A DNA stretch of 64,000 nt, from NCBI GenBank assembly GCA_964647585.1, contig CAZYGG010000004.1:16154-80153 (forward strand). The letters run 5' to 3'. Position numbers and translations under genes: made by a program. Below are positions 2-13,265 of the stretch, one piece after another. The notes under the pieces were generated by a model. It searched no databases. It had not been told where the DNA came from and saw nothing but the letters and a program-made list of their open reading frames with translations. The DNA is from an uncultured Desulfobacterales bacterium (GTDB lineage: Bacteria > Desulfobacterota > Desulfobacteria > Desulfobacterales > CAJINA01). Within the stretch, counting starts at the first letter, position 1. Each line of letters starts with the position of its first letter.

Positions 2-967
2 GAAACCGAGGCAGCCGTAAAACTGCTGTTTGAGCTGATCGTTGCCGCCACCCGGAAGAAGAACTTTACTAAAGCCGAAGAATTGCGGGACCGCCTGTAC
101 GATGTGGATGCCATGGCCCTGACGGAAATCGTCAAAGCCGGTGAAATCATCGAGCAGGAAAAGTCCGAGTCCATTGACCAGGACCACCTGGCTGTCTGGC
201 CCGAGCTCTACGACAAGCTGAGCAGCGAGGAAGCCAGCGCCCTTTTCTATGCCCTGGAAGAGGTTGCCTATGAAGCCGACCAGACCGTATATGCGCAGGG
301 ACAGAAAAACGAAAACCTCTATTTCATTACCGAGGGCAGCCTTAAACTGGTCTACCGGGATGGTGAAAAGGAAACCCTGCTAAAGACACTCGAAAAGGGG
401 AACATCGCCGGGCACACGACTTTTTTTACCATCAGCATGTGCACCACGTCGATGATCACACTCTCCAGTGTGAAGATGAACGTGCTCTCCCAGGCGGCAA
501 TGGAACCATGGCAGAATGACTTTCCCGCCTTGAAATCCAAACTTGAAGATTACTGCCTGAAACTTGAAAAATCCCGAGACATTATTAAAGCAAAGGGCAT
601 GGATCGCCGCAAGCATCCGCGTTTTGACGTCAAAGGCAAAATCCTGGTTCAGCTTTTAAACCGGAAACGGCTGCCCATGGGAAAACCCTTCAAGGGTGTC
701 TTCGCCGATATTTCCGAAGGCGGTTTGAGCTTTTTTATCATCACTTCCAAGCAGGAAACCGCCCGCATGCTGCTGGGCCGGCGCCTGGGTCTCAAATTTC
801 TCATCCCCACCCGGGCGGCCCCCCTGAAAACGTTCCAGCATGGGACGGTTATCTGCGTCAACTATCACCTGAAGAATGACTACTCCATCCACGTCTCCTT
901 CGATGACGAGTTGCCGGGCGGAATTGCCGGAGCCATAAAACGGTTGAAAAACGTGAAAACCGAATAG
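2..967 (+). CDS. cyclic-nucleotide-binding-like / PilZ domain protein (5' end probably upstream of window)
   Basis: The frame is open from nt 2, with no stop before the listed TTG at 83. cNMP-binding-like core 'NLYFITEGSLKLVYRDGEKE'. C-terminal PilZ motifs 'RRKHPR' (RxxxR) and 'DISEGG' (DxSxxG). Confidence 0.7.
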   Translation, partial: ETEAAVKLLFELIVAATRKKNFTKAEELRDRLYDVDAMALTEIVKAGEIIEQEKSESIDQDHLAVWPELYDKLSSEEASALFYALEEVAYEADQTVYAQGQKNENLYFITEGSLKLVYRDGEKETLLKTLEKGNIAGHTTFFTISMCTTSMITLSSVKMNVLSQAAMEPWQNDFPALKSKLEDYCLKLEKSRDIIKAKGMDRRKHPRFDVKGKILVQLLNRKRLPMGKPFKGVFADISEGGLSFFIITSKQETARMLLGRRLGLKFLIPTRAAPLKTFQHGTVICVNYHLKNDYSIHVSFDDELPGGIAGAIKRLKNVKTE

Positions 968-1342
968 CTCTTTAGCAATGTTGTTCTTTATTTATGCCAC
1001 GCGTTGCTGGCATATGAACGCTGCCTGGCAATTGCGGCCTGACAATTGCGGACAGATTACTCTGCAACCAGGTAAAACCGGTAGCTATTTCAACATATCT
1101 GTCTTCTTAGGGAATTTCTGATATTTAGCTGGCCCACCTTATACGCCAGTTTCGGTGGCGTTAGTGAGGACAGGGCGTGTTTATTGAATTATTTGATAAT
1201 TTCAGGTTTTGGTCATGCATCTGTATGGGCCGAAATTCCGTAGGAATTGACAAAATAGTCTTTTTTATATAACAAAATAGCCACTCCCACCCGAACCAGT
1301 TCCAAAATCAATCATATCGGCCACATATTTAGGGCTCATTTT

Positions 1343-4300
1343 ATGAATTGCCCAGTATGCCAAATTGAGATTCCCGAAGATTCGAAGTTTTGCAAAGAGT
1401 GTGGCCATCCTTTAATTGAGATCTTTGATGCAGAAGAAGCCCCACGGATAATAGACAGCGAACGGAAGCACGTTACTATCATGTTTTCTGACTTGTCGGG
1501 ATACACAGCCATTACCGAAAGGCTCGATCCTGAGGAAGTCAAAGCGATCATGAGCTATATCTTCGGAGAAGTAACGCAGATAATCCACAATTATGATGGA
1601 TTCATTGAGCGGTTCATTGGCGATGCTGTGATGGCTATTTTTGGCGTGCCAAAAGTACATGAGGATGATCCCGTCCGAGCGATAAGGGCCGCCAGGGAGA
1701 TACATGCTTTTGTGGAAGGGTTTAGCCCTCAAATTGAAATTAGAATTGGAAGGCCGCTGACAATGCACACGGGCATTAACACCGGCCTTGTTGTGACTGG
1801 CGAAGTAGATGTTGCCAAAAGGACGCATGGTTTGACCGGAGAGGCCATCAACCTGGCCTCAAGAATGGAAGGCCTTGCCAATGCGGGCGAAATCGTCGTC
1901 GGCCCTGCCACCTATCGCCGGTCAGAAGACATTTTTTCGTTTCAGGCCCTAAAGCCAACCAAAGTCAAGGGCTTCGCGAACCGAATTCGACCCTATAAAG
2001 TCTTAAGCTTGAAAACGCATACTAAAAGACCCCGTATAGGTTTGGAGCGCCGGATATACTCTGAGATGGTTGGGCGCGAAAGAGAATTGAATAAGCTGGA
2101 GTTGCAGTTGGCCAAGGCGATTGATGGTGATGGCTCAGTTGTAAACATCATTGGCGAGGCGGGCATTGGGAAATCAAGGCTTTTTTCGGAATTTAATAAT
2201 CTGGACTCATTACAGCGTGTGATACTTCTTGAAGGCAAGGCGATATCCATAGGTAGGAACCTGGCTTTCCATCCGATCATTGACCTTCTCAAACACTGGA
2301 CGCGTATCGGGGAAAATGACAGCGAGGCCAGTGCTTTAAGTAAACTTGAATCTGCCGTTCAGAACGTGTGCCGGGAAGATGCGGAGGAGATTGTTCCTTT
2401 TCTGGCGACCCTTATGGGCATGCAGCTTTTTGGCCGGTATGCTGAAAGAATCGCAGGCATCGAAGGTGAAGCCCTTGAAAAATTGATCTTGAAAAATATC
2501 AGGGAACTACTATCGAAAGCGTCTGAACTTATTCCGCTTGTGATTGTGATGGAAGACCTGCACTGGGCAGATACAAGCTCCATAGAACTCCTGGAATCTT
2601 TATTTCGCCTGGCAGAATCTCACAGCATACTTTTCGTCAATTTATTCAGGCCTGATCATGCAGAAACAGGGGAAAGGATCGTTGCAACCCTAAAAGAAAA
2701 GCTGTCTGTCTATCATGTTGAAATCGTATTGCAATCGCTGGATAAAAGTATGAGCGAAAAGTTAATCGACAATATGCTTAACATCCGGGACCTTAACTAT
2801 CCCATCAAAAATAAGATTATTGAACGTGCCGGCGGGAACCCTTTTTTCATTGAAGAGATAGTCCTTTCGTTTGTTGATGAGGGGTATATCGTCCCACAGG
2901 AAGGGAAATTCGAGATCAGCAACAAGATCGCCATGATGGTCGTGCCGTATACCATCAACGATGTCCTTAACGCGAGAATAGATCGCCTGGAGAAAGAGAC
3001 CCGGAACCTGGTGAAAATCGCTTCAGTGATTGGTAAAAATTTTTTTTACAGAATCCTGACAAATGTGGCTACGGCAACAGATGATATTGACAGCCACTTG
3101 GCATACCTCAAGAAGATCCAGATAATTATGGAACGGATGCGGCTGGATGAGTTGGAATTTTTTTTCAAGCACGCCCTGTTCCAGGAAGCTGCCTATAAAT
3201 CCATTTTGCATAACAAGCGAATAGCCCTGCATCTACGCGTTGCAAGAACTATTGAAAGTCTGTTCAAAGAACGTCTGCATGAATTTTACGGCATGCTGGC
3301 GCTGCACTATAACCGGGGCCGGAACGATGAACAGGCCGAATACTATCTATCCATGGCAGGGAAAGAAGCACTGAAATCATCGGCTTCAAATGAAGCGCTG
3401 CATTATTATCAAGAGGCCCTGAACCTGTATTTGAAAAAATCCAGCACCGATGCCGATCCTGAGAAGGAAGCCATGTTGGAGAAGAATATCGCCTTGGCCC
3501 TTTACAACCGCGGGCAGCACGAGGAGGCTGTGGGACACTTTGACCGGGCTCTGGATCATTATTGGGGCAAATTGTCGAAGAATGTATTTTCAAGAACAAT
3601 CGAGGTTTTGTCCTCTTTCTTGCACGTTGTCACAGCATTGTTCATTCCATCCTTGAAGTTTAGAAAAACGCCAACCCAACGAGATCTCCAAGTATTCGAC
3701 CTCTTCTACAAGAAATGTAAGGCCCTGGTCATAACTAATCCCAAGCAATCCTTTTTTGAATTCTTATTCCTTCACAAAACAATTTCTGCTTTCGATCTTA
3801 AAGAACTCGAAAACGGGACGGGCGTATTCGTAAGTGCAAGCCCGCTATTCTCTTTTTCCGGCCTTTCTTTCGGATTGAGCAGAAGGGTATTGGATTTCGT
3901 TAAGCCCAGGGTTAGTAGAGATGCTGTCAGACCTTACACAATCTATAAGTTATGTGAAACCATACATAATTTCTTAGAGGGGAACTGGGAAAAAATAGGA
4001 AATTATGATGAGGATTTGATAAACCAAACCTGCAACATTGGAGAAATATATGATGCCACCCAAATTCTGTACTGGCATGCTTTTCCCTGTATTTATCAGG
4101 GATCCCTCGAGATCGCCGAATCGATATTGAATCGATTGGAGGACATCTTTCAAGTTTATCAATATAACCTTGCAAAGACCTTCAAATATGAATTGAAATC
4201 GTGTTTGCTGATGGAGTGCCACAGATTTAATGATGCGCTGATTGAAATTAAGGAGGGAATTGATTTTGAGGCGAAGGCGGGTCCAGGGTTTTGGAAGCTT

Positions 4301-4858
4301 TATGTTTACGAAGCGCGGATATACACTTCAGTCGGCGAGATTGAAAAAGCGGAAAAATGCCTGGCGCAAGCGAATAGGATCTGCCACCAGATTAGACCAG
4401 TTCCCTTTCAAATGGCAGGACTCTGTAGAGCTGAGCTGGAGTACAATCTGTATCGAGTAAAAGAAATGCTGAGAAACGGCAATAAAACAAAACTATCCGA
4501 ATATCGGAAGAAGGCCGGCAAATCAGTTAAGATGCTCTTAAGAAATGTACGCAAAGTAGCTCAATATCGTACGGAAGCGTACAAACTGACTGGAGAGTTT
4601 TACTGGCTGATGAACAAACAGAAAACGGCCCATGCATGGTGGCGCAAGGCCATTGAGGAAGGCGAACGCCTCGGCGCCCGTCTTCAGCTCGCAGGCGTTT
4701 ATTTTGAATTAGGAAAACGATTACTCGGGCCCGAAAGTAAGTACAGGGTTCTTGACGGAATCAGAGCGGAAGATTACCTGGAAATGGCGAGATCATTGTT
4801 AGAGGAAATGAAACTGCAGTCTTATTTAGATGAACTGAATCAATTCACCAGGGGATAA
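1343..4858 (+). CDS. Zn-ribbon + class III adenylate/guanylate cyclase + STAND/AAA ATPase + TPR signalling protein
   Basis: N-terminal 'CPVCQ...CKECG'. Cyclase motifs 'VTIMFSDLSGYT', 'FIGDAVMAIFG', 'GEAINLASRMEG'. Walker A 'GEAGIGKSRL' and Walker B-like 'LVIVMEDLHWAD'. Long helical-repeat C-terminus (TPR-like, 'EALHYYQEALNLY'). Confidence 0.85.
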   Translation: MNCPVCQIEIPEDSKFCKECGHPLIEIFDAEEAPRIIDSERKHVTIMFSDLSGYTAITERLDPEEVKAIMSYIFGEVTQIIHNYDGFIERFIGDAVMAIFGVPKVHEDDPVRAIRAAREIHAFVEGFSPQIEIRIGRPLTMHTGINTGLVVTGEVDVAKRTHGLTGEAINLASRMEGLANAGEIVVGPATYRRSEDIFSFQALKPTKVKGFANRIRPYKVLSLKTHTKRPRIGLERRIYSEMVGRERELNKLELQLAKAIDGDGSVVNIIGEAGIGKSRLFSEFNNLDSLQRVILLEGKAISIGRNLAFHPIIDLLKHWTRIGENDSEASALSKLESAVQNVCREDAEEIVPFLATLMGMQLFGRYAERIAGIEGEALEKLILKNIRELLSKASELIPLVIVMEDLHWADTSSIELLESLFRLAESHSILFVNLFRPDHAETGERIVATLKEKLSVYHVEIVLQSLDKSMSEKLIDNMLNIRDLNYPIKNKIIERAGGNPFFIEEIVLSFVDEGYIVPQEGKFEISNKIAMMVVPYTINDVLNARIDRLEKETRNLVKIASVIGKNFFYRILTNVATATDDIDSHLAYLKKIQIIMERMRLDELEFFFKHALFQEAAYKSILHNKRIALHLRVARTIESLFKERLHEFYGMLALHYNRGRNDEQAEYYLSMAGKEALKSSASNEALHYYQEALNLYLKKSSTDADPEKEAMLEKNIALALYNRGQHEEAVGHFDRALDHYWGKLSKNVFSRTIEVLSSFLHVVTALFIPSLKFRKTPTQRDLQVFDLFYKKCKALVITNPKQSFFEFLFLHKTISAFDLKELENGTGVFVSASPLFSFSGLSFGLSRRVLDFVKPRVSRDAVRPYTIYKLCETIHNFLEGNWEKIGNYDEDLINQTCNIGEIYDATQILYWHAFPCIYQGSLEIAESILNRLEDIFQVYQYNLAKTFKYELKSCLLMECHRFNDALIEIKEGIDFEAKAGPGFWKLYVYEARIYTSVGEIEKAEKCLAQANRICHQIRPVPFQMAGLCRAELEYNLYRVKEMLRNGNKTKLSEYRKKAGKSVKMLLRNVRKVAQYRTEAYKLTGEFYWLMNKQKTAHAWWRKAIEEGERLGARLQLAGVYFELGKRLLGPESKYRVLDGIRAEDYLEMARSLLEEMKLQSYLDELNQFTRG

Positions 4859-4866
4859 GAGCCTGA

Positions 4867-5862
4867 ATGGATATTGGGATTACAAATTTGCTGTCATTCT
4901 GCGCGCGTGTCGATTTTGGCACGGTGAACCTTTCCCGAGAAGAGGAAGCCTTTCGTGGGGAGCTCAACCGGGTGATGTTGTCACTCTGTGAGTGCTTGCC
5001 TGAATCCAGGCAGACCGAGGCAACCTTATTCTTGATGAAATACTTGCAGGCCTCTTTCAGCGGCGGCCCTAATTTTGTCAACTACTTCTACGCGCCGGCA
5101 TGGTCGATCCTTTTTTGGCTTCATCGATCCTGTCCGGATAACATAAAACTGGACCCAGAATATGTGCAAGCTGTAAAGACCGGGCATACCATGGCCATGT
5201 TCCTGCATGCTTTCGACGACCATCTTGTTGACGGTCAATTACCCATTACACACCTGGCCTTGCTCATCAGGAGCCAAGCCTGGATGATCATGAACCGGGC
5301 TTTTGACCGATTAGCCAGTGACGTTGAGAGGGGACCGGCAATTGTTCATAATTTTATAGACGACTACTATGCGAGCATCGCCACTTCCGGCGGCACGAAT
5401 TCCCTGGGTAGTTATTGCGATCTTTTCAGGAAACAGATGGCCACCTGTTTGATCGTCCCCATCCTCCTGGCAAACAGGATAAGCACCGGCAAAGCGTTTT
5501 CACGATCCATTCAGGCAGCTTACTGCTCTTTCGGCATTGCCTGGAGGCTGCTCGATGATCTACAAGACCTTGAAAAAGATATGATGAAGGGCGTCCATTC
5601 TTCCATCTATGTCTGCCTTAGTGAAGATTTAAGGCGTTGCTGGGATAAAAGCACTGAAGAGAAAAAAAACCAGAATAACGGCTACGTGCAAAAATTATTG
5701 CGTTATGTTCAGAAAGAAGGGGTCATTGACCGCATAAAGGCAAGGACATGCAGCGAGTTGGACTCAGCCGCTGCTGTCGCTGACGCATGCAGCCTGCCAG
5801 AGCTGGCAGGTGAGTTTCGCTCTCTTTTGAAACCATTGAAAGAAGGGCAGCACCTTTCATGA
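4867..5862 (+). CDS. class I isoprenoid-synthase-fold protein (polyprenyl or squalene/phytoene-synthase-like), function unknown
   Basis: Two Asp-rich motifs, 'HAFDDHLVDG' and 'GIAWRLLDDLQDLEKDMMKG', lie about 100 aa apart as in head-to-head/trans-isoprenyl synthases. The start is 8 nt after the upstream stop. The stop overlaps the next gene (ATGA). Confidence 0.5.
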   Translation: MDIGITNLLSFCARVDFGTVNLSREEEAFRGELNRVMLSLCECLPESRQTEATLFLMKYLQASFSGGPNFVNYFYAPAWSILFWLHRSCPDNIKLDPEYVQAVKTGHTMAMFLHAFDDHLVDGQLPITHLALLIRSQAWMIMNRAFDRLASDVERGPAIVHNFIDDYYASIATSGGTNSLGSYCDLFRKQMATCLIVPILLANRISTGKAFSRSIQAAYCSFGIAWRLLDDLQDLEKDMMKGVHSSIYVCLSEDLRRCWDKSTEEKKNQNNGYVQKLLRYVQKEGVIDRIKARTCSELDSAAAVADACSLPELAGEFRSLLKPLKEGQHLS

Positions 5863-6941
5863 AGGGAAACACTACAGAGGGAATCTTTCCGGGGGTGGGG
5901 CAAGAAGCACTGTCTATCGAGGTAACATCGCGCTGCAACAGTTCCTGCTTACACTGTTTTGCCCGTTCCGCTATCTCCAGACGCCCCAGCCTCCCCGTCG
6001 ATATAGTCAAGGAGATCATTGCCGAAGGGCATGCTGTTGGATACCGTCACCTGCATATTACCGGCGGCGAACCGCTACTCTGGAAAGGCCTGTTTGAGGC
6101 CCTGGACTATGGATTTGAGGTGGGATATGAAACCATCTTTGTGAATACCAATGGGACCCTCATTACAGAAGAGATCAGTAAGAGACTTGCCAAATACGGT
6201 AACTTTTCGATCTCGGTCAGTTTGGATGGACCCGAAGACCTGCATGACCGCATACGGGGAGAGGGATCACACAAAAGGGCAATGCGGGGCATTGAGAAGG
6301 CGCTAAATGGGGGGAACGATTGTACAATTTTCACAACAGTTACAAAAGGCCTGCTGCCGGAGTTGCCGCACTTTGCAAATGATCTGTACACAGAGTTTCC
6401 AACCATCGACTGTCTCATTCTCATCCAGCTCATTCAAACAACCAATGGCGGGTTTCCCCTGTCAGAGGAGCTTCTTGATCCGGATGACTTCATACGCTTG
6501 GTGAGAATGGCGGCGCTTTTGAATATCGGCGGTTTGCGTACAATCGTGAAGAAGAATCCTGCCGCCAACGTCGTTTCTAAATTGATGCAGATGCCATGGA
6601 TCCCGAAGGTTCCGCCCCTCTACCGGGAGGGCTGCATGATTGTATTTGCAAACAGGCATATCGGCGTGGTGCACTCAAGCAAGAAAAGCTTCGGCAGATA
6701 CAGGACCGGTATGATACGAAAAGTTCTGGCTTCCGATGAGTATCAAAAAACCGTCGCGTCGGACCAAGAAACGTGTCTATTGTGTAAATATACCCAACTC
6801 TGTCAGGCAAACGGAATGATCCGTCCCTCACGCGGGTACGGAGATCTTTACACCGATAAACCCTATTGCCGGCGAGTACTGGAGACGATTGAATCGACTC
6901 AAGCTGTTAAGGTGCGGAAAAGAAAGGAGGGATATATCTGA
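5859..6941 (+). CDS. radical SAM enzyme with Cys-rich (partial SPASM/twitch-like) C-terminus
   Basis: 'SIEVTSRCNSSCLHCFA' (CxxxCxxC), 'ITGGEPLL', 'VNTNGTLI', 'SVSLDGPEDLHDRIRG'. C-terminal 'CLLCKYTQLC...YC'. Confidence 0.85.
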   Translation: MKGNTTEGIFPGVGQEALSIEVTSRCNSSCLHCFARSAISRRPSLPVDIVKEIIAEGHAVGYRHLHITGGEPLLWKGLFEALDYGFEVGYETIFVNTNGTLITEEISKRLAKYGNFSISVSLDGPEDLHDRIRGEGSHKRAMRGIEKALNGGNDCTIFTTVTKGLLPELPHFANDLYTEFPTIDCLILIQLIQTTNGGFPLSEELLDPDDFIRLVRMAALLNIGGLRTIVKKNPAANVVSKLMQMPWIPKVPPLYREGCMIVFANRHIGVVHSSKKSFGRYRTGMIRKVLASDEYQKTVASDQETCLLCKYTQLCQANGMIRPSRGYGDLYTDKPYCRRVLETIESTQAVKVRKRKEGYI

Positions 6942-7098
6942 CCGGAAAAAAAAGACAAGACCATGGATGGCTCTGGTAAACTGCAAAGGCGCTTTTCAGA
7001 TTCGAAACGGTCGGGTTCGACAAAAGGCCCTTTGTGGCTCGCGGGGTTTAACAACCTCATGAATCATAATGTGCAAACACAAAAGAGAGGAGAAAAAC

Positions 7099-7353
7099 AT
7101 GGATAGTGACAGAGAAAAAAAAGATTTTATAAAGTTCATTATGGATGCAACCCTAGATGCGGGACTGGCGACAAGATTTCTTAGAGAAAATACCGCTTCG
7201 GGTGTTCACGAATTCTTCCAACAAGAAGGGTACAAAGACATACCCCTCGAAGATTGCGAAGATATACTAAACGCTTCAACTTCCGGGCATGGGCGGGGTA
7301 TTGACGATGCCGGCAACCCTGTAGACCTCAGTGACGCTACAAAAAGTTACTGA
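7099..7353 (+). CDS. small (84 aa) Nif11-like domain protein; candidate RiPP-type precursor
   Basis: ATG at 7099 is preceded by 'agaggag' about 6 nt upstream; the listed ORF start 7069 lacks an RBS. 'KKDFIKFIMDATLDAGLATRFLRENTASGVHEFFQQEGYKDIPLEDCEDIL' follows the Nif11/N-terminal leader pattern (helix, ...L..FL, G(F/Y)..(S/T/P).E(D/E)). The C-terminal 25 aa are Gly/Asp-rich. Confidence 0.45.
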   Translation: MDSDREKKDFIKFIMDATLDAGLATRFLRENTASGVHEFFQQEGYKDIPLEDCEDILNASTSGHGRGIDDAGNPVDLSDATKSY

Positions 7354-7537
7354 TAGAAAAAAACTGTTATTTAAGCTCTGGGGAAAAACGATCTATACGA
7401 TGATGCTCGCGGCATTGATCTCGGCCTTCGATCCAGTGTCCGTAAAAAGTCCGGGGCTAGCCGTAGAAATAAGTATTCGTACGAACTATGATCTCACGGG
7501 GAAGGCAACCTGAAGCTAAAGCGGGTTCAGCGCGGTT

Positions 7538-8767
7538 TTGTTCGGAGGACTACTATTGGTTTCACAAAAGTTCAATACCGAAGAGCGGGTAACGGATTGC
7601 GACGTAATGATTGTCGGGGCCGGTCCGGCAGGCATATCGACCTGGCTGCATTTGAAAAAGTATGCGCCGGAACTGGCTGACAACACGGTTTTGATCGAGA
7701 AGGCCGCTTTCCCGCGACACAAGTTGTGCGCCGGCGGGGTCGGGGCGTGGAGTGCAGATGTATTAGGGCACCTGGAGGTTGATTTAAAAATCCCATCGCT
7801 GTTTGTAACTGATGTAGAGTTTCGGTATCGAGATGAAAGCTGGCTATATAAAAGCCCAACTCGTTTCAGGATGGTCCAGCGTGCGGATTTTGATTTTGCC
7901 CTGGCAAAATCGGGTGTCAATCGCGGCATGGCGTTTCATGAAAACGAAAAATTCATCGCGGCAAGCCGTGAGCGGGATACACTGGCGGTATTGACCAGCC
8001 AAGGAAAATATTACGTAAAAGCCCTTGTGGGCGCAGATGGGTCCCTTTCCATGGTGCGTCGCAAGATGATGCGGCCCCATCAAACCTGCCTGGCAACAAC
8101 GCTGCAGATCTCGGCGCCGGTAAATCCGAAATATGATCCGGAATTTTCCCTGAAGAAATTGCTGATTGATTTTTCACCGGTCGACGCAGGTCTTCAGGGG
8201 TACACGTGGCATATTCCCTGCCTGCAAGATGAGGCGCCCAGCATGAATCACGGTATCGGAAATTTCCGATTCCACCCCGAAAGGTCGCGGCCGGACATGA
8301 AAAAGATATTCAGCCGGGAATTAAAAACACGCCATATTGATAAGAGACCCGAATCCTGGTCCAGTCACCCCATCCGATGGTTCTCAAACGAAGTACCGAT
8401 TTCACGACCCAGTGTCCTTCTGGTCGGCGATGCCGCCGGCATTGAGCCCGCGTTCGGCGGGGGGATCCACATGGCCTTGTCTTATGGTGAGATCGCAGCC
8501 AGGACCCTGATTCAGGCGTTTCAAAATAAAGATTTCACATTTAGGCACTATAAGCATACCGTCATGTCCCATTTTATGGGGGGGCATATCAGGGCTTGTA
8601 CCCGTTTGGCAAGCAAGATATACGGCGGAAAAAAGAATCCATTAAGAAGCCTGGTACGCCATTTTTTAGCGGGTCGGTTTGGCAGCCGGAATCTATTGTC
8701 TCTCCTTCTTGGACCAGACAACGCCGGATACAACCAGGCTGCGTCCAAAGGGGCCAACATACAATAA
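7538..8767 (+). CDS. FAD-dependent oxidoreductase, geranylgeranyl-reductase/FixC-like family
   Basis: 'DVMIVGAGPAGIS' dinucleotide fold, 'LVGADGSLSMVRR', 'LVGDAAGIEPAFGGGI'. The start codon is uncertain (TTG 7538 or downstream). Confidence 0.75.
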   Translation: MFGGLLLVSQKFNTEERVTDCDVMIVGAGPAGISTWLHLKKYAPELADNTVLIEKAAFPRHKLCAGGVGAWSADVLGHLEVDLKIPSLFVTDVEFRYRDESWLYKSPTRFRMVQRADFDFALAKSGVNRGMAFHENEKFIAASRERDTLAVLTSQGKYYVKALVGADGSLSMVRRKMMRPHQTCLATTLQISAPVNPKYDPEFSLKKLLIDFSPVDAGLQGYTWHIPCLQDEAPSMNHGIGNFRFHPERSRPDMKKIFSRELKTRHIDKRPESWSSHPIRWFSNEVPISRPSVLLVGDAAGIEPAFGGGIHMALSYGEIAARTLIQAFQNKDFTFRHYKHTVMSHFMGGHIRACTRLASKIYGGKKNPLRSLVRHFLAGRFGSRNLLSLLLGPDNAGYNQAASKGANIQ

Positions 8768-8979
8768 CAGTTTAACACCACAGTGCCATTGAGGCTCCCA
8801 GGTCGCATGCCGGTGAAGCCCTGGCCGACGGTTAAACCAGCATGAACTTGATGTACCGATAGCCCCTGCATTTTTCTACATGGATTATTTTCTGCCTCCG
8901 GGATTCAGTAGAATGACCAAAGCAATGCCCGGTTTCAGTAATACCGATACGAAGACAGATATTTCATATCAAAGGATTT

Positions 8980-9828
8980 ATGCGTTGCGGCAATGCCTAT
9001 CACCCAGAAATATACCCGAATTTAGTCCCTGTAATTTTTTTGATTTGCCTTTGTTTTTCCACCGCCTGTACACATCCTGTCAGGCGATTGGTGTTCCAAC
9101 CACACAAAATACAGTCGGTACCGCCATTTTCTAAAGATGTGGCTCACCTTGATCGGTTTTGGCTGAAAACAGAACAAGGTGACGTTGAGTGGTGGCTTTT
9201 TGAGGGATACGGGGTTGATGCCCGCCACAGTGGCCCTGCCGTTTTAATGGCTCATGGCAATCGTGAATTGATCGATTTTTACATGGGTCGTGCCAAAGCA
9301 TATCAAAGCATGGGCTACACTGTGCTCTTAGGCGAATATCGCGGATATGGGCGAAGTGCCGGAGAGCCGAGCAGAAAGCGCATTGAGCGTGATTACAGGC
9401 GATATTATGATCAATTAATATCTCTCCCGACAGTAGACTCTGAGCGCATTGTGTTCCATGGTCGCTCATTGGGCGGTGCTGTATTGAGTGAGCTTTCCCG
9501 ACAACGACCACCGGCTGCCATAATTGTGGAATCAACATTTACATCTATCAAGGCAATGGCGCATGGAGCACCTGATTTCTTACTTTCGGACAACTACGAC
9601 ACCCTCTCCGCGCTATTGGACTTTCAAGGTCCAATCTTGATCATCCATGGCACTGAAGACGATGTAGTGCCTGTCGAACACGCCCTGGAAATGAAAAGAC
9701 GAATTCCGACTGCCGAATTGCGCCTTTACAACTGCGGCCACAGCGATGGGCCGCCGGTATGGGAAAAATACTGGAAAGATATTTCTAAATTTCTTGATCA
9801 GGTATGGTCAACTGGCAAGAAGCCCTGA
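8980..9828 (+). CDS. secreted or lipoprotein-like alpha/beta hydrolase
   Basis: Hydrophobic N-terminus ending 'CFSTAC'. Nucleophile elbow 'GRSLGG'. 'IIHGTEDDVVP' and 'CGHSD' are consistent with a Ser-Asp-His triad. Confidence 0.75.
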   Translation: MRCGNAYHPEIYPNLVPVIFLICLCFSTACTHPVRRLVFQPHKIQSVPPFSKDVAHLDRFWLKTEQGDVEWWLFEGYGVDARHSGPAVLMAHGNRELIDFYMGRAKAYQSMGYTVLLGEYRGYGRSAGEPSRKRIERDYRRYYDQLISLPTVDSERIVFHGRSLGGAVLSELSRQRPPAAIIVESTFTSIKAMAHGAPDFLLSDNYDTLSALLDFQGPILIIHGTEDDVVPVEHALEMKRRIPTAELRLYNCGHSDGPPVWEKYWKDISKFLDQVWSTGKKP

Positions 9829-9838
9829 TTGAAGAGTA

Positions 9839-9858
9839 CCCTGCAGCAAGCTGCAGGG
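9839..9858. terminator. perfect GC-rich palindrome between convergent genes (possible bidirectional terminator, no U-tract)
   Basis: 'CCCTGCAGC-AA-GCTGCAGGG' lies between the stop of the hydrolase (+) and the stop of the HD protein (-). Confidence 0.35.
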
Positions 9859-9939
9859 GATGCGCTCGCTGATTCGGTCCACAATTTACGTTCATGAACC
9901 CTGAATTATCAAAGAACCGCTCAAGGCATCTTCATGTTC

Positions 9940-10638
9940 CTATAGCCGTCCTTCAATTTCACTGATAAAACGCTCAAAGAAGGCTTCCATGAAAGTATGA
10001 CGTTCGGCAGCCAGCCGCCGGCCTTCGTTTGTGAGCATACGGGTATGGATGTGGCGCAGCTTGACCAGGTACTCCCGGTAGCCCGTGTCGTTTTCCGAGT
10101 AGGCCGGAGCGGCGGTCACGTCGATATCGGGGTTGTGCAACCGGGCCCCGACCTCACCGGCAAACAGGTAGGCCCGGGCAACCCCCACCGCGCCGATGGC
10201 GTCCAGTTTATCGGCGTCGAACAGGATTTGGGCCTCAAGGGTCTCAGGCGCGTGGTTCTCCCGGAAACGGTGCGACCGGACACAGTGCACGATATTCTTT
10301 TTTTCTCGCCCGGATAGCGGCATCTCTTCCAGGATGACCGCAGCCAGGCGAGCCCCCTCACTGGCATGGCACCGCGCGCCGGAAGAACGATCCTGGTGAC
10401 AGCGACCGATATCGTGCAGATAGCCGGCGATACAAAGAACTTTCAGATCGGCCCGTTCGACTCGGCCGATGTGTTCGCAAAGCGCCACAACTCGCAGGGT
10501 GTGGTCCCAGTCGTGACTCCCCGAGGCCCTGAGAAAGAGCTTTCGGGACTGGTCTTTTATCGAGGCGATCAGGTCAGCAGCGGCCGCAGGGTCGGATTCG
10601 GGGGCGCCCCCACCTCTCGCGTGGTTCCGGTCGTCCAC
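9940..10638 (-). CDS. HD-domain phosphohydrolase
   Basis: 'HDWDHTLRV' and 'GYLHDIGR' give the H...HD...D metal-binding pattern. Confidence 0.8.
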   Translation of the reverse strand: MDDRNHARGGGAPESDPAAAADLIASIKDQSRKLFLRASGSHDWDHTLRVVALCEHIGRVERADLKVLCIAGYLHDIGRCHQDRSSGARCHASEGARLAAVILEEMPLSGREKKNIVHCVRSHRFRENHAPETLEAQILFDADKLDAIGAVGVARAYLFAGEVGARLHNPDIDVTAAPAYSENDTGYREYLVKLRHIHTRMLTNEGRRLAAERHTFMEAFFERFISEIEGRL

Positions 10639-10640
10639 TA

Positions 10641-11096
10641 TCAGCCGGACCTCTTACCGGTTATTTCGTTAAGGGTGATTGCTATCACCGTGGTAATTTT
10701 CAACTTGTTATCCGGATATTCGCCCCCCTGGCCGCCATAATGTTCCATGATAACATCCAGAGCCTCTATTTTTCCGGTTTCATCTTCGATAAATCGAGCC
10801 TCTCCGAAGGCAATGACACTTTCAAAGCGTTGCCCCCATTCGCAGTTTGTTTCCCCCCGGACAATTTCACGCGGGTTACTGAATTCAAGGCAGACCCGGG
10901 GGTTGGCCTTGAGCATGTCAATCTTCCGGCCCTGCCTGGCGGAATGGAAGTAGACGGTATTATCCCTATAGCCGAAATTCAGGGGAACCACATACGGCTG
11001 GCGGTTGTCGGCCAGGGCCAGGTGGCAGACCTGGGCCTCCCGGATGAGTTGCTCGATCTTATCTTTATCCTTGATTTCTTTATCTTTTCTGCGCAT
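10641..11096 (-). CDS. pyridoxamine 5'-phosphate oxidase-family FMN-binding protein (NimA-like)
   Basis: 'MRRKDKEIKDKDKIEQLIREAQVCHLALADNRQPYVVPLNFGY...VYFHSARQGRKIDMLKANPRVC' matches the family pattern. It lies 2 nt upstream of the HD gene. Confidence 0.7.
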   Translation of the reverse strand: MRRKDKEIKDKDKIEQLIREAQVCHLALADNRQPYVVPLNFGYRDNTVYFHSARQGRKIDMLKANPRVCLEFSNPREIVRGETNCEWGQRFESVIAFGEARFIEDETGKIEALDVIMEHYGGQGGEYPDNKLKITTVIAITLNEITGKRSG

Positions 11097-11236
11097 TAAA
11101 CACCTCCGGTAAAAATTTCTGAAAAATGATACAAGAGCCCCGACAGGTTGTCAATTACATCGCTTGCTAAAAACCTTGATTTTACGTTCGATACCAATTA
11201 GTAATTTCTTTTTTAAACCCGGTAAGGTCCCTTAAA

Positions 11237-11704
11237 ATGAATAAAAAAATTCTGGTAATCGACAACAACAGAATCATTCTCAACTTCATGAAAAAGCTCC
11301 TTGAAAAAGAGGGCCATGCGGTTGCTACGGCCGAGGACGGCCTGAGGGCCATCAACCTTCTGGACGACTTCCAGCCGGATATCATATTTACCGATCTGAT
11401 CATGCCCAATATCGAGGGGGACAAACTCTGCGAAATTGTCCGCAGCAAGGGATTGCATGACAACTGCTACCTGGTGCTCATGTCCGCGGCAGCCGTGGAA
11501 ATCAATTTTGAAGACGTCGATATTTCCGCGGATGCCTTTATGGCCAAAGGACCTTTCAATGAGATGACCCGCAACATTCTGGAAATCATCAACCACCACG
11601 ACCCGGGAATAGTTACCCCCATGACCAAACCGGTTATGGGTACCGATTCGGTGTCCCCCCCGGCAGATGACCGTGGAACTGCTCTCCAGAAACAGCCATC
11701 TTAG
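11237..11704 (+). CDS. single-domain response regulator (REC)
   Basis: 'KILVIDNN', phospho-acceptor region 'DIIFTDLIMPNIEGD', 'VLMSA', 'AFMAKGPF'. Confidence 0.85.
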   Translation: MNKKILVIDNNRIILNFMKKLLEKEGHAVATAEDGLRAINLLDDFQPDIIFTDLIMPNIEGDKLCEIVRSKGLHDNCYLVLMSAAAVEINFEDVDISADAFMAKGPFNEMTRNILEIINHHDPGIVTPMTKPVMGTDSVSPPADDRGTALQKQPS

Positions 11705-13265
11705 AACCGTGCTTGAAAGTATATCTGAAGGGATACTTGAAATTTCCGCGGGCAAAGTCGTCTATGCCAACCAGACGGCCTGCCGGCTCTTCGGTCTCCC
11801 ACAGGAAAAGATGCTTTCAGTCACCCCGGAAGCCCTGTTTGAAAATAGCGCGGCCAACCGGGTTAGAAGACTGCTGGACACGACGACCACGACCGCAGTC
11901 GCGATTGGGACCCGGGTACCCCTCCAGCTTCTGAAAAAAAGAGTCCGGCTGCGCTGCCTGCCAGCCATCGGTGAAAACACCGTCATTTTGATGCTCTCGG
12001 ACGTTACCGAGCGCTTAGCCATCGAAAAAGAGCTGCACAAATACCGTGATCATCTGGAGCGCCTGGTGGAAAAACGCACGGCCGATTTGACCAGGACCAC
12101 CAAAAAACTTCACCAGGCCCAGAAACTGGAAGCCATCGGCACCCTCGCCCGCGGTATCGCCAACGACCTGAACAATGTCCTCGCAGGCATCATCAGCTAT
12201 CCGGAATTACTCCTGGCGCAAATCGGGCCGGATGACACCCTGGTCGCGCCACTGCAGACAATTAAAAAATCAGGGGAAAAAGCCGTCGCCATCGTGCAGG
12301 ACCTCTTGAACCTGGCCAATCGCGGTGTATCCGCTTCTGAAGTTGTCTCCCTGAACGAAACCATTCTGGCCAGTCTCGACAGCCCCGAGTTCCAGAAACT
12401 GCAAGCCTATCACCCGACCGTAAAGGTGCAAACTGACCTGATGACCGACCTCCCCCATATGCTGGGGTCTCCCCGCGACCTTTCCAGGGCACTGATGAAC
12501 CTGGTGTCCAACGCGGTCGCGGCCATGCCCTCGGGTGGCGGGATCACCATCACCACGCAGGTCCGGCACCTTGACCGCCCCCTAGACGGCTACCCTGACA
12601 TTGATGCAGGCGAATATATAGAAGTAACCGTAACCGATACCGGCGTGGGAATTTCTGAAAATGATATCACGCGTATCTTTGAACCGTTTTACACCAAAAA
12701 CGAGATGGGCCGCAGCGGCACCGGCCTGGGCATGGCGGTTGTCTGGGGAACTGTGAAAGACCACCAGGGTTACATTGACGTTGAAAGTATCATGGGGCAG
12801 GGCACCACCTTCAGCCTCTATTTTCCCGTACCCCGGCAGTTACCCGAGAAGAAACCCGCAACCGTATTGCTTGAACAACTCAGGGGCAACGGAGAATCCG
12901 TGCTGGTGGTGGATGATATGCCGGAACAACTGGAAATCGCTACCGGCATGCTGACCGAACTGGGGTACCAGGTCGCCAAGGCCGACAGCGGTGAAGCGGC
13001 CGTGTCCTACCTGCAGACCCACACGGTCGACCTGCTGCTGGATATGATTATGACACCGGGCCGCGACGGCCTGGAAACCTACCGGAAAATTCTCACGGCC
13101 CACCCTCACCAAAAAGCGGTTGTTTCCAGCGGCTTTTCAGCCACCGACCGCGTCCGTGAGGCGCACGCGCTCGGGGCCGGGCAATTCCTGCGCAAACCCT
13201 TTTCCATACAGGCACTGGGGATCAGTGTTAAAAAAGCCCTGCAGGGTAAAACCAACGAAGCCTAA
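11667..13265 (+). CDS. PAS / HisKA-like / HATPase_c / REC hybrid sensor kinase with non-canonical H-box (His replaced by Asn)
   Basis: PAS-like N-terminus. DHp 'KLEAIGTLARGIANDLNNVLAGI'. N-box 'LMNLVSNAVAAM', G1 'DTGVGI', G2 'GTGLGMAVV'. REC 'VLVVDD...LLLDMIMTPGRDG...LRKPF'. It overlaps the upstream RR by 38 nt, so the start is uncertain. Confidence 0.8.
   Translation: MTVELLSRNSHLRTVLESISEGILEISAGKVVYANQTACRLFGLPQEKMLSVTPEALFENSAANRVRRLLDTTTTTAVAIGTRVPLQLLKKRVRLRCLPAIGENTVILMLSDVTERLAIEKELHKYRDHLERLVEKRTADLTRTTKKLHQAQKLEAIGTLARGIANDLNNVLAGIISYPELLLAQIGPDDTLVAPLQTIKKSGEKAVAIVQDLLNLANRGVSASEVVSLNETILASLDSPEFQKLQAYHPTVKVQTDLMTDLPHMLGSPRDLSRALMNLVSNAVAAMPSGGGITITTQVRHLDRPLDGYPDIDAGEYIEVTVTDTGVGISENDITRIFEPFYTKNEMGRSGTGLGMAVVWGTVKDHQGYIDVESIMGQGTTFSLYFPVPRQLPEKKPATVLLEQLRGNGESVLVVDDMPEQLEIATGMLTELGYQVAKADSGEAAVSYLQTHTVDLLLDMIMTPGRDGLETYRKILTAHPHQKAVVSSGFSATDRVREAHALGAGQFLRKPFSIQALGISVKKALQGKTNEA

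Follow-up and report, generated by a model that had tools for sequence, protein, structure and literature searches.

The 64,000-nucleotide stretch of DNA analysed here (hereafter the window), which comes from an uncultured Desulfobacterales bacterium, carries near its beginning a set of adjacent genes for a 331-amino-acid protein (T331), a radical S-adenosylmethionine (rSAM) enzyme, an 84-amino-acid small protein and a flavoprotein. Our analysis suggests that this region encodes an uncharacterised peptide maturation system similar to those of peptides that are made by ribosomes and modified after translation (RiPPs), the product of which is probably a lipid-modified peptide signal or cofactor. 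That the system is RiPP-like and acts on the terminal tyrosine of the small protein, its putative precursor, is very likely. Beyond the joint action of these genes on a peptide, every mechanistic step proposed below, and with it the chemistry, is inferred. The system is of a known kind, an rSAM-dependent RiPP-like pathway, in which the precursor family, the enzyme family and the pairing are new. An earlier note on this DNA, made from the sequence alone, did not recognise the combination as a named pathway, and this held in Pfam, NCBIfam (release 20; June 2026), PADLOC, public protein names and full-text searches of the literature, none of which gave a description of the system. Its most diagnostic feature, which that note had missed, is the tyrosine that invariably ends the small protein. 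The small protein, the enzymes and their neighbours were read from the list of open reading frames (ORFs) together with the raw sequence, and the main features are located as follows.

4867-5862, + strand: T331, 331 amino acids (aa), predicted class I trans-isoprenyl-diphosphate-synthase fold (AlphaFold2 model, Foldseek)
5215-5232, + strand: T331 motif 1, D117-D118-H119-x-x-D122, resembling the first aspartate-rich motif (FARM) with DDxxxD spacing (alignment)
5545-5580, + strand: T331 motif 2, R227-LL-D230-D231-x-Q-D234-x-E-x-D238, equivalent of the second aspartate-rich motif (SARM) (alignment, hhalign)
5859-6941, + strand: rSAM enzyme, 360 aa (PF04055)
5934-5957, + strand: rSAM cluster motif C26-x3-C30-x2-C33 (25/26 orthologs)
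6774-6869, + strand: rSAM C-terminal cysteines C306-x2-C309-x5-C315...C337 (26/26 orthologs)
7099-7353, + strand: precursor peptide gene, 84 aa, with ATG at 7099 and a GAGGAG Shine-Dalgarno sequence at 7087-7092
7556-8767, + strand: flavin adenine dinucleotide (FAD) flavoprotein of the geranylgeranyl reductase (GGR) superfamily (alignment over the full TIGR02032 model)

The elements that the earlier note had read from this DNA were recovered as it described them. The stop codon of the upstream gene, which encodes a STAND-type nucleotide cyclase (STAND-cyclase), lies at 4858 and is separated by 8 nucleotides (nt) from the ATG of T331 at 4867. The strings HAFDDHLVDG and GIAWRLLDDLQDLEKDMMKG are both found in T331, the T331 stop overlaps the rSAM start (ATGA, 5859-5862), CNSSCLHC and CLLCKYTQLC are both present in the 360-aa rSAM enzyme, the 84-aa ORF occupies 7099-7353, and a gap of 212 bp separates the end of the flavoprotein gene at 8767 from the ATG of an α/β hydrolase gene at 8980. 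The same cyclase, 331-aa, 360-aa and 84-aa genes were delineated by independent gene callers in three metagenome contigs with identical T331.

Precursor peptides ending in tyrosine

The 84-aa protein has no match in Pfam or NCBIfam. Clustering of ORFs from the neighbourhoods of related genes reveals a family of 72-108 aa to which it belongs, whose tails are not alignable between clades and whose every member ends in tyrosine. The members share the N-terminal pattern dFIdFI...L...F......L..fF..kGY.i...dC. In the window protein a helical leader (residues ~10-62) is followed by a variable tail (residues 63-83) and by the terminal Tyr84 (TAC, 7348-7350), immediately before the stop codon. Its AlphaFold2 model consists of four helices (residues 10-62; predicted local distance difference test score, pLDDT, ~80) and a disordered tail. 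The alignments thus point to a new precursor family with a conserved four-helix leader, a hypervariable tail of ~20 residues and a C-terminal tyrosine.

Two sets of loci were used for comparison. The first came from a T331 scan of species-representative genomes and comprises 33 loci, all from metagenome-assembled genomes (MAGs); the second came from a reciprocal rSAM scan of species-representative genomes, which gave 396 relatives, the best 80 of which were kept as loci. A hidden Markov model (HMM) of the precursor found 23 matches in the first set, all of them ending in tyrosine against a background of 80/3,563 ORFs (2.2%), and 62 in the second, again all Tyr-ended against 153/4,915 ORFs (3.1%), counts that give no formal P-value because the matches are homologous. 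In a database of 5.8 billion proteins, 24 of the 26 matches end in tyrosine, and the two others sit on contigs of ~0.5 kb and diverge partway through. The tyrosine and the stop behind it are therefore retained while the preceding ~20 residues, the penultimate one included, vary freely. At least one copy of the precursor is present in 56 of the 80 rSAM-anchored loci, and several loci have two. Among 13 loci in which the HMM detected no precursor, a search for Tyr-ended small ORFs (>=40 aa) found none that was convincing.

A large sub-family from Desulfobacteraceae (e.g. locus L017, 11981-12307; proteins P0278-P0295) has a conserved tail, ...F(N/S)VPxNVDY, and is accompanied by a C25 (gingipain-type) peptidase and by additional rSAM enzymes. 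Precursor tails are thus conserved inside clades though hypervariable between them.

The earlier note had called the small protein Nif11-like, a label that goes too far, as the Nif11 models PF07862 (Pfam) and TIGR03798 (NCBIfam) match 0 of 16 precursor members at E<=1. A fold search with the precursor model also found nothing significant. For a direct comparison we used a leader sequence of the prochlorosin type that was validated here as Nif11 (PF07862, 2.9e-17); hhalign aligns this domain end to end with the precursor leader, but the resemblance is weak (E 5.9e-4, probability 29%). The two kinds of precursor, the Nif11/NHLP-leader type being exemplified by the prochlorosins, are alike in that a short variable core comes after a long helical leader (~50-60 residues). 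However, the present family lacks the conserved GG/GA cleavage motif and is accompanied by other partner enzymes. Features generally expected of a RiPP locus are seen, namely a small precursor with a conserved leader and a variable core, and co-localised modifying enzymes and peptidases.

The coupled T331-rSAM pair

T331 loci were found in Desulfobacterota, in Spirochaetota/Leptospirales and in single bins of Firmicutes, Planctomycetota and Symbiobacteriaceae. The closest belongs to the Olavius algarvensis Delta 4 endosymbiont (L005), with 79-81% identity in all four large proteins. Two other MAGs, L058 and L101, bear the labels Desulfomonile tiedjei DSM 6799 and Leptospira biflexa Patoc. The first three relatives share the gene order STAND-cyclase, T331, rSAM, an ORF of 80-87 aa, at times a second rSAM enzyme and an S8 or S53 peptidase, and the flavoprotein. 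In the window, rSAM is translationally coupled to T331 through the ATGA overlap. The two genes are adjacent in ~30 of the 33 T331-anchored loci and in 75 of the 80 rSAM-anchored loci; in three of the five exceptions the rSAM gene lies at a contig edge. In at least six loci (L011, L030-L033 and L035) both enzymes form a single ORF, and further fusions were found in the protein database (P0123, P0193, P0196, P0200 and P0210). T331 is also fused to a GGR-like flavoprotein in P0170 and to a VAO/DprE1-type oxidase in P0231. These fusions suggest that T331 works physically with the rSAM enzyme and with flavoproteins. On comparative grounds T331 and rSAM appear to be an inseparable core pair, often one polypeptide. 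Proteins of the cassette are annotated merely as 'hypothetical protein' or 'radical SAM protein', and the public names at the NCBI-annotated locus are all generic.

Several departures from this arrangement were observed. The clade with fused T331-rSAM (L031, 4482-7142; L033; L035) has no Tyr-ended precursor and instead carries a conserved upstream trio made up of a HEAT-repeat protein (493 aa), an ORF of 70-73 aa and an ORF of 293 aa without a Pfam match. An outlier T331 subfamily of 28-29% identity (L034, 8408-10936; L037, 8436-10939; P0231) lacks rSAM; it adjoins or is fused with an FAD_binding_4 (VAO/DprE1-type) oxidase, and a Pfam-less protein of ~1,260 aa is also present. In several Leptospirales/spirochaete loci the otherwise tightly coupled pair is broken up by VapBC-like toxin-antitoxin genes inserted between T331 and rSAM (L013, 2911-3548; L023, 7469-8124; L019, 11120-11766; L015). 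In two related MAGs (L026, 12050-18438; L024, 7185-13492) the T331-rSAM pair has four aldehyde dehydrogenase paralogs (PF00171) directly downstream of it. The rSAM gene is split into two ORFs in one MAG (L003/L006, ~9262), and both T331 and rSAM are fragmented in L036 (6565-8592); these copies are either sequencing frameshifts or decaying cassettes.

The rSAM enzyme matches PF04055 at 3.2e-27 (Pfam), and its core opens directly at the N-terminus, leaving no N-terminal recognition domain. The nearest NCBIfam names for the core are AhbD (93.8 bits), AhbC, NirJ and MftC (77.5 bits), all far under their cutoffs; the nearest relatives in the Protein Data Bank (PDB) are SkfB, at the top, and BlsE (5.9e-9). 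By sequence similarity, these nearest relatives would include the decarboxylating enzymes AhbD, NirJ, MftC and BlsE. The cysteines of the CX3CX2C motif are kept in 25/26 orthologs. In the C-terminal region four cysteines, arranged as CX2CX5C...C, are invariant in 26/26 orthologs and differ from the seven-Cys SPASM motif; they are enough for one auxiliary cluster and not for a full SPASM domain. We presume a single auxiliary [4Fe-4S] site of the twitch or partial SPASM type. The description of this enzyme as SPASM-like in the earlier note is therefore upheld in part, since Pfam gave no match to PF13186 and the four invariant cysteines suggest one auxiliary cluster.

T331 has no significant match in Pfam or NCBIfam, the best being Terpene_synth_C at E 0.05. 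Sequence and profile searches of the PDB found nothing relevant (the sole match was a ROP helix, E~1), and the link between T331 and prenyl synthases accordingly came solely from the fold search. The AlphaFold2 model of T331 is all-α (pLDDT 74; predicted template modelling score, pTM, 0.74). In a Foldseek comparison with the PDB, all 26 matches at E<=1e-3 are trans-isoprenyl-diphosphate synthases (trans-IDS) or prenyltransferases of the IDS fold, namely GGPPS, FPPS, OPPS and the indole prenyltransferase Ord1, with TM-scores of 0.53-0.64 and identities of 9-16%. Among 5.8 billion proteins 657 homologs were found at E<=1e-3, mostly unnamed, a few of which carry the NCBI name 'class 1 isoprenoid biosynthesis enzyme'. 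When 1.84 billion representatives were searched exhaustively with the profile, only 271 clusters (50% identity) were recovered, which means that canonical polyprenyl and terpene synthases lie beyond its reach.

Motif 1 was invariant and motif 2 near-invariant in the first T331 alignment. In a set of 111 diverse members spanning 24-64% identity, each aspartate of the two motifs is kept in 109-111 members, and the best-conserved positions are H114, D117, D118, H119, D122, R135, W139, Y167, W226, R227, D230, D231, D234 and D238. In the model, motif 1 lies at the C-terminal end of helix 97-121 and motif 2 at that of helix 209-233, a predicted placement that corresponds to the FARM/SARM topology (helix D carrying FARM and helix H carrying SARM). 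Alignment with hhalign puts 'GIAWRLLDDLQD' of T331 on the SARM GxAFQxxDDxxD of E. coli IspB and IspA, with weak pairwise E-values of 0.026 (IspB) and 0.0012 (IspA). After D122 the sequence reads GQLP, and the RRG element that follows FARM and binds isopentenyl diphosphate or diphosphate is not conserved. Because of the DDxxxD spacing of motif 1 and the missing RRG, chain elongation is an unlikely role for T331.

The threshold of PF00348 is not reached; the window protein has no match at E<=0.1, and the best value among 34 diverse members is 0.018, with matches in 6 of them. Against Pfam as a whole these 34 members give merely sub-threshold matches to the isoprenoid clan, plus DUF5685. Two T331 homologs (P0100 and one more) weakly match DUF5685, with a best E of 1.6e-4; this family is essentially unstudied (one paper mentions it) and may be a sister family of T331 sharing its fold. 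The model suggests that T331 is a divergent family which belongs to the trans-IDS superfamily at the level of fold and lies outside the polyprenyl synthetase family proper. The phrase 'isoprenoid-synthase-like' used for it before is thus borne out for fold and motifs and not for named families, as nothing in Pfam or NCBIfam is significant. We lean slightly towards a catalytic, diphosphate-binding T331.

Linked sensors, accessory genes and surroundings

Large sensor proteins and a variable set of accessory genes accompany the core pair. Three further features of the window are considered here.

83-967, + strand: protein with cyclic nucleotide monophosphate (cNMP)-binding and PilZ domains (Pfam; PF00027, 3e-11; PF07238, 6e-5)
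1343-4858, + strand: STAND-cyclase with zinc ribbon, class III nucleotide cyclase, AAA_16 NTPase and TPR (Pfam)
8980-9828, + strand: α/β hydrolase (Hydrolase_4/S33, with a Peptidase_S9 match)

The STAND-cyclase matches Guanylate_cyc (8.3e-23), AAA_16 (8e-23) and TPR in Pfam. Among NCBIfam models it scores best against the TOMM kinase/cyclase fusion TIGR03903 (280 bits, under the cutoff), a family that itself sits beside RiPP loci. The STAND-cyclase is present in 37 of the 80 rSAM-anchored loci, all of Desulfobacterota type, and lies immediately upstream of T331 in 11 loci with gaps of -11 to +79 nt. The gene, which the earlier note had not counted as a member, therefore appears from its neighbourhood to belong to the cassette unit in Desulfobacterota. 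In 26 of the 80 loci, mostly from spirochaetes and none with the STAND-cyclase, a 7TMR-DISM histidine kinase/receiver/SpoIIE-PP2C protein of ~1,070-1,120 aa is found, encoded next to the precursor gene in the same orientation (e.g. L022, 12026-15226, - strand; L077, L094, L100 and L101). This consistent linkage to two unrelated large sensors suggests a role in cell-cell or intracellular signalling, which we hold as a tentative view of the product. The cNMP-binding protein upstream of the cyclase has an ortholog at the same position in L005 (2707-6180; 1,157 aa, with HEAT repeats added), so that a producer of cyclic AMP (cAMP) and a likely cAMP receptor flank the cassette. It is possible that this protein is the cAMP receptor of the module, and the association is tentative.

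The flavoprotein probably starts at TTG 7556, the start chosen by the gene caller, with a Shine-Dalgarno sequence GGAGGA at 7544-7549; the ORF-list start is 7538. It aligns over the full length of TIGR02032 with 120.8 bits against an NCBIfam cutoff of 158.8, and the flavoprotein domain of P0170 reaches 140.7 bits against the same model. Invariant positions in eight orthologs are P59, K62, C64, G66, G221, Y222 and W224, together with GDAAG, which places them in PxxKxCGG and GYxW. These agree with the motifs that the GGR literature gives for that family (the conserved Cys in PxxKxCGG, and YxWxxP). The flavoprotein therefore resembles GGR, ChlP and MenJ in its full-model alignment and invariant motifs, and differs from them in its sub-cutoff score and in the location of its gene in a peptide-maturation locus. 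Its earlier designation as GGR-type stands insofar as this is the best-scoring family and the motifs are invariant, and fails at the cutoff. As the gene is found in 17 of the 80 rSAM-anchored loci, it would be an accessory tailoring enzyme rather than part of the core. Other lineage-specific accessory genes encode S8, S53 and C25 peptidases, B12-binding and SPASM rSAM enzymes and a CMAS-like methyltransferase; the three unrelated peptidase classes recur across related loci.

The hydrolase, described before as secreted, is present and has an N-terminal hydrophobic, lipobox-like segment (LCFSTAC). No homolog of it was found in any of the ~110 related loci, and for this reason we leave it out of the cassette; the idea that it is the leader peptidase was dropped on the same ground. 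S9 proteases are described as leader peptidases of WprB clusters (PMC12957482), and by analogy with such RiPP leader peptidases a local role of the hydrolase is possible. Of the two genes that the earlier note had placed at the end of the cassette, the hydrolase is thus no part of it and the flavoprotein is accessory. Conservation of gene neighbourhood, which that note had proposed as a check, holds for the T331-rSAM core and the precursor, fails for the hydrolase and extends to the flavoprotein in a minority of loci.

Downstream of the cassette, genes on the opposite strand (9940-13265) encode an HD-domain protein and a PNPOx-like protein that binds flavin mononucleotide, followed by a response regulator (11237-11704) and by a hybrid of PAS, histidine kinase and receiver domains (11667-13265). 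The GC content is 0.55-0.59 from about 9.5 kb on and 0.45-0.50 within the cassette. A scan of 900-10100 for promoters and terminators found no more sites than shuffled controls and is therefore uninformative on operon structure.

Proposed chemistry and competing explanations

The earlier note had set a RiPP-like reading, with the rSAM enzyme acting on the small protein, beside one of lipid metabolism. The former is strongly favoured by the precursor family, the co-inheritance of the genes, the fusions and the peptidases. In the scheme that we propose, the precursor leader would dock on the T331-rSAM complex, and the free C-terminal tyrosine would be the reaction site. The rSAM enzyme would abstract a hydrogen atom at this tyrosine, plausibly in an oxidative decarboxylation like that of MftC, which would explain why tyrosine has to be the very last residue; that requirement points to chemistry on, or recognition of, the free carboxylate. 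The two Asp-rich motifs of T331 would bind Mg2+ and a prenyl diphosphate, and T331 would alkylate the phenol ring or oxygen of the tyrosine. In the lineage of the window the GGR-like flavoprotein may then saturate a C=C bond, and elsewhere B12-rSAM, SPASM-rSAM and methyltransferase enzymes may act as tailoring enzymes, with S8, S53 or C25 peptidases releasing a short lipidated C-terminal fragment. The product would probably be a signal tied to the adjacent sensor, the STAND-cyclase in Desulfobacterota and the seven-transmembrane (7TM) histidine kinase/PP2C protein in spirochaetes. Prenylation of the tyrosine is a serious candidate to which we give a little short of an even chance, and decarboxylation we consider rather unlikely.

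The closest parallel is found in ComQ and StheQ, enzymes of the IDS fold whose substrate, an adjacent peptide of ~70 aa, is prenylated on an aromatic residue (Trp) near its C-terminus; in ComQ/ComX and StheQ/StheX, the near-terminal Trp is alkylated by a FARM-bound Mg2+-prenyl diphosphate (10.64898/2026.08.29.745113). The present system shares with these pairs a trans-IDS-fold enzyme beside a precursor of ~55-100 aa. As in ComX-type peptides, the sole conserved core residue is aromatic, at or near the C-terminus of a polymorphic tail, and a sensor gene is adjacent (ComP there, the 7TM kinase/PP2C or STAND-cyclase here). A polymorphic tail with one invariant aromatic residue and adjacent sensors, similar to the ComX pherotypes, favours a signalling role. 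However, the modified Trp of ComX is subterminal and the tyrosine here is strictly terminal, the ComQ family has a pseudo-SARM (NDxxx) where T331 has a full DDxxD SARM, and ComQ has no rSAM partner, in contrast to T331, whose rSAM is obligate and often fused.

Several observations weigh against the proposed scheme. T331 reaches no family threshold, and it is linked to prenyl synthases through a model of moderate confidence (pLDDT 74) and weak hhalign E-values of 0.0012-0.026; the DDxxxD spacing of motif 1 is atypical, and T331 lacks the RRG found behind FARM in true synthases. SkfB, which leads the PDB relatives of the rSAM enzyme, forms thioethers and is not a decarboxylase, and similarity in the rSAM core alone predicts reaction type poorly. 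The GGR-like flavoprotein is found in just 17/80 loci, and it shares its superfamily with QhpG, LodB and GoxB, which are hydroxylases of peptide residues. The cassette has no prenyl-diphosphate synthase or transporter, and no peptidase is found in this window. As many as 24 of the 80 loci, the whole fused-enzyme clade included, are without a cis precursor of this family. Finally, uncultured MAGs and metagenomes are the source of all the loci.

Some of these points can be read differently if T331 is a helical rSAM partner that is non-catalytic, or catalytic in another way, and binds the leader as PqqD does, the tyrosine chemistry (decarboxylation, cross-linking or hydroxylation) being purely radical. 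The rSAM enzyme has no N-terminal recognition domain, and no PqqD-type recognition domain was identified in the cassette among the Pfam and NCBIfam matches listed. T331 misses every isoprenoid-family threshold and the RRG element, and its obligate pairing and fusions with rSAM are what would be expected of chaperone-enzyme pairs such as PqqD-PqqE or MftB-MftC. However, a scaffold would not need the Asp-rich motifs, which together with H114, H119, R135, W139, Y167 and R227 are the most conserved positions and lie at the FARM and SARM positions of the fold. T331 is moreover fused to flavoproteins without rSAM in P0170 and P0231. We consider this explanation unlikely, though it deserves to be kept in view.

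It is also conceivable that the peptide yields a small-molecule redox cofactor of the mycofactocin or PQQ type, the tyrosine being modified, excised and used by partner oxidoreductases. In mycofactocin, too, a ribosomal precursor with a C-terminal tyrosine is the site of rSAM action and the pathway has a flavoprotein and a peptidase, and MftC is among the closer named relatives of our rSAM core. The resemblance of the precursor and of the rSAM enzyme (77.5 bits) to MftA/MftC, the flavoprotein and peptidases shared with the Mft and Qhp pathways, and the tyrosine as sole invariant, which fits a product made from tyrosine alone, all agree with such a cofactor. The four aldehyde dehydrogenase paralogs that flank the pair in L024 and L026 and the VAO/DprE1-type oxidases fused or adjacent in the outlier clade point the same way. 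However, the rSAM score is far under the 265-bit cutoff of MftC (TIGR03962), the mycofactocin precursor ends in Val-Tyr where the penultimate residue is unconstrained here, four auxiliary-region cysteines stand in place of a full SPASM, and T331 has no Mft counterpart. Among the Pfam and NCBIfam matches listed for the cassette ORFs, none is named MftB/PqqD, MftD, MftE or MftF. Minimal cassettes (the window, L005 and L009) have no dedicated peptidase, known cofactor precursors have conserved cores unlike these tails, which are hypervariable between clades, and the linkage is consistently to large sensors and not to dehydrogenase families. A cofactor of this type is therefore improbable, and more so than a T331 that serves as leader-binding partner.

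Maturation of quinohaemoprotein amine dehydrogenase (QHNDH) offers a related comparison, because a trio of the same enzyme types (the rSAM QhpD, the flavoprotein QhpG and the S8 peptidase QhpE) modifies a small polypeptide of ribosomal origin there. Compared with QhpG, the flavoprotein domain of P0170 reaches 73 bits, whereas the window flavoprotein matches it weakly (28 bits, cutoff 240). In contrast to the QHNDH system, the precursor has no visible thioether Cys/Asp/Glu pattern and the loci no dehydrogenase subunit context; the Qhp pathway has no T331.

The second reading of the earlier note, in which a synthase, the rSAM enzyme and a reductase tailor an isoprenoid lipid and the small ORF is incidental, could draw on T331 having an IDS fold, on the GGR-like flavoprotein and on the CMAS-like methyltransferase of some loci, yet it is effectively refuted, and we regard it as highly improbable, because the small ORF belongs to a conserved family, found in 56/80 loci, whose last residue never varies, peptidases recur, the flavoprotein is absent from most loci and there are no lipid-pathway neighbours. 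Equally improbable is anti-phage defence, with a STAND sensor, a Pycsar-like cyclase, a cNMP-binding effector and a viperin-like rSAM enzyme. Besides the cNMP-binding protein upstream of the cyclase, it has in its favour PADLOC matches of the cyclase domain to PycC (58 bits) and of the rSAM core to pVip (57 bits), but these are generic, single-domain matches, and we rejected the reading on that account; rSAM covers only the first half of pVip and has a better score with AhbD (93.8 bits), PADLOC matches are absent for T331, the precursor and the flavoprotein, no Pycsar, Avs or viperin match was obtained at the level of a system, and the T331-rSAM-precursor core is conserved in spirochaetes without the STAND protein.

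We return, then, to a RiPP-like system that modifies the terminal tyrosine. A bolder version of it, which we offer as a speculation with the odds clearly against it, is a hybrid of radical and polar chemistry without precedent, in which a tyrosine radical, perhaps decarboxylated, would be coupled to a polyprenyl chain held by T331 to give a lipidated peptide pheromone. Such a pheromone would be read in Desulfobacterota via the intracellular STAND-cyclase, cAMP and the cNMP/PilZ protein, and in spirochaetes via the 7TM kinase/PP2C protein. The host organisms, gutless-worm symbionts and Leptospirales included, are not known to use peptide signalling. If the pheromone were real, it would represent ComX-like quorum sensing in anaerobic phyla from which it is not known, as well as a RiPP class that is new.

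The cassette is widespread, with at least 657 T331 homologs and 396 rSAM relatives in species-representative genomes, and its minimal unit comprises three or four genes. If the function proposed here holds, these genes would define a RiPP class that is new, as are its precursor family and its 'C-terminal Tyr' rule, and a new family of enzymes in which an IDS-fold protein is obligately tied to an rSAM enzyme, and possibly a new form of peptide lipidation.

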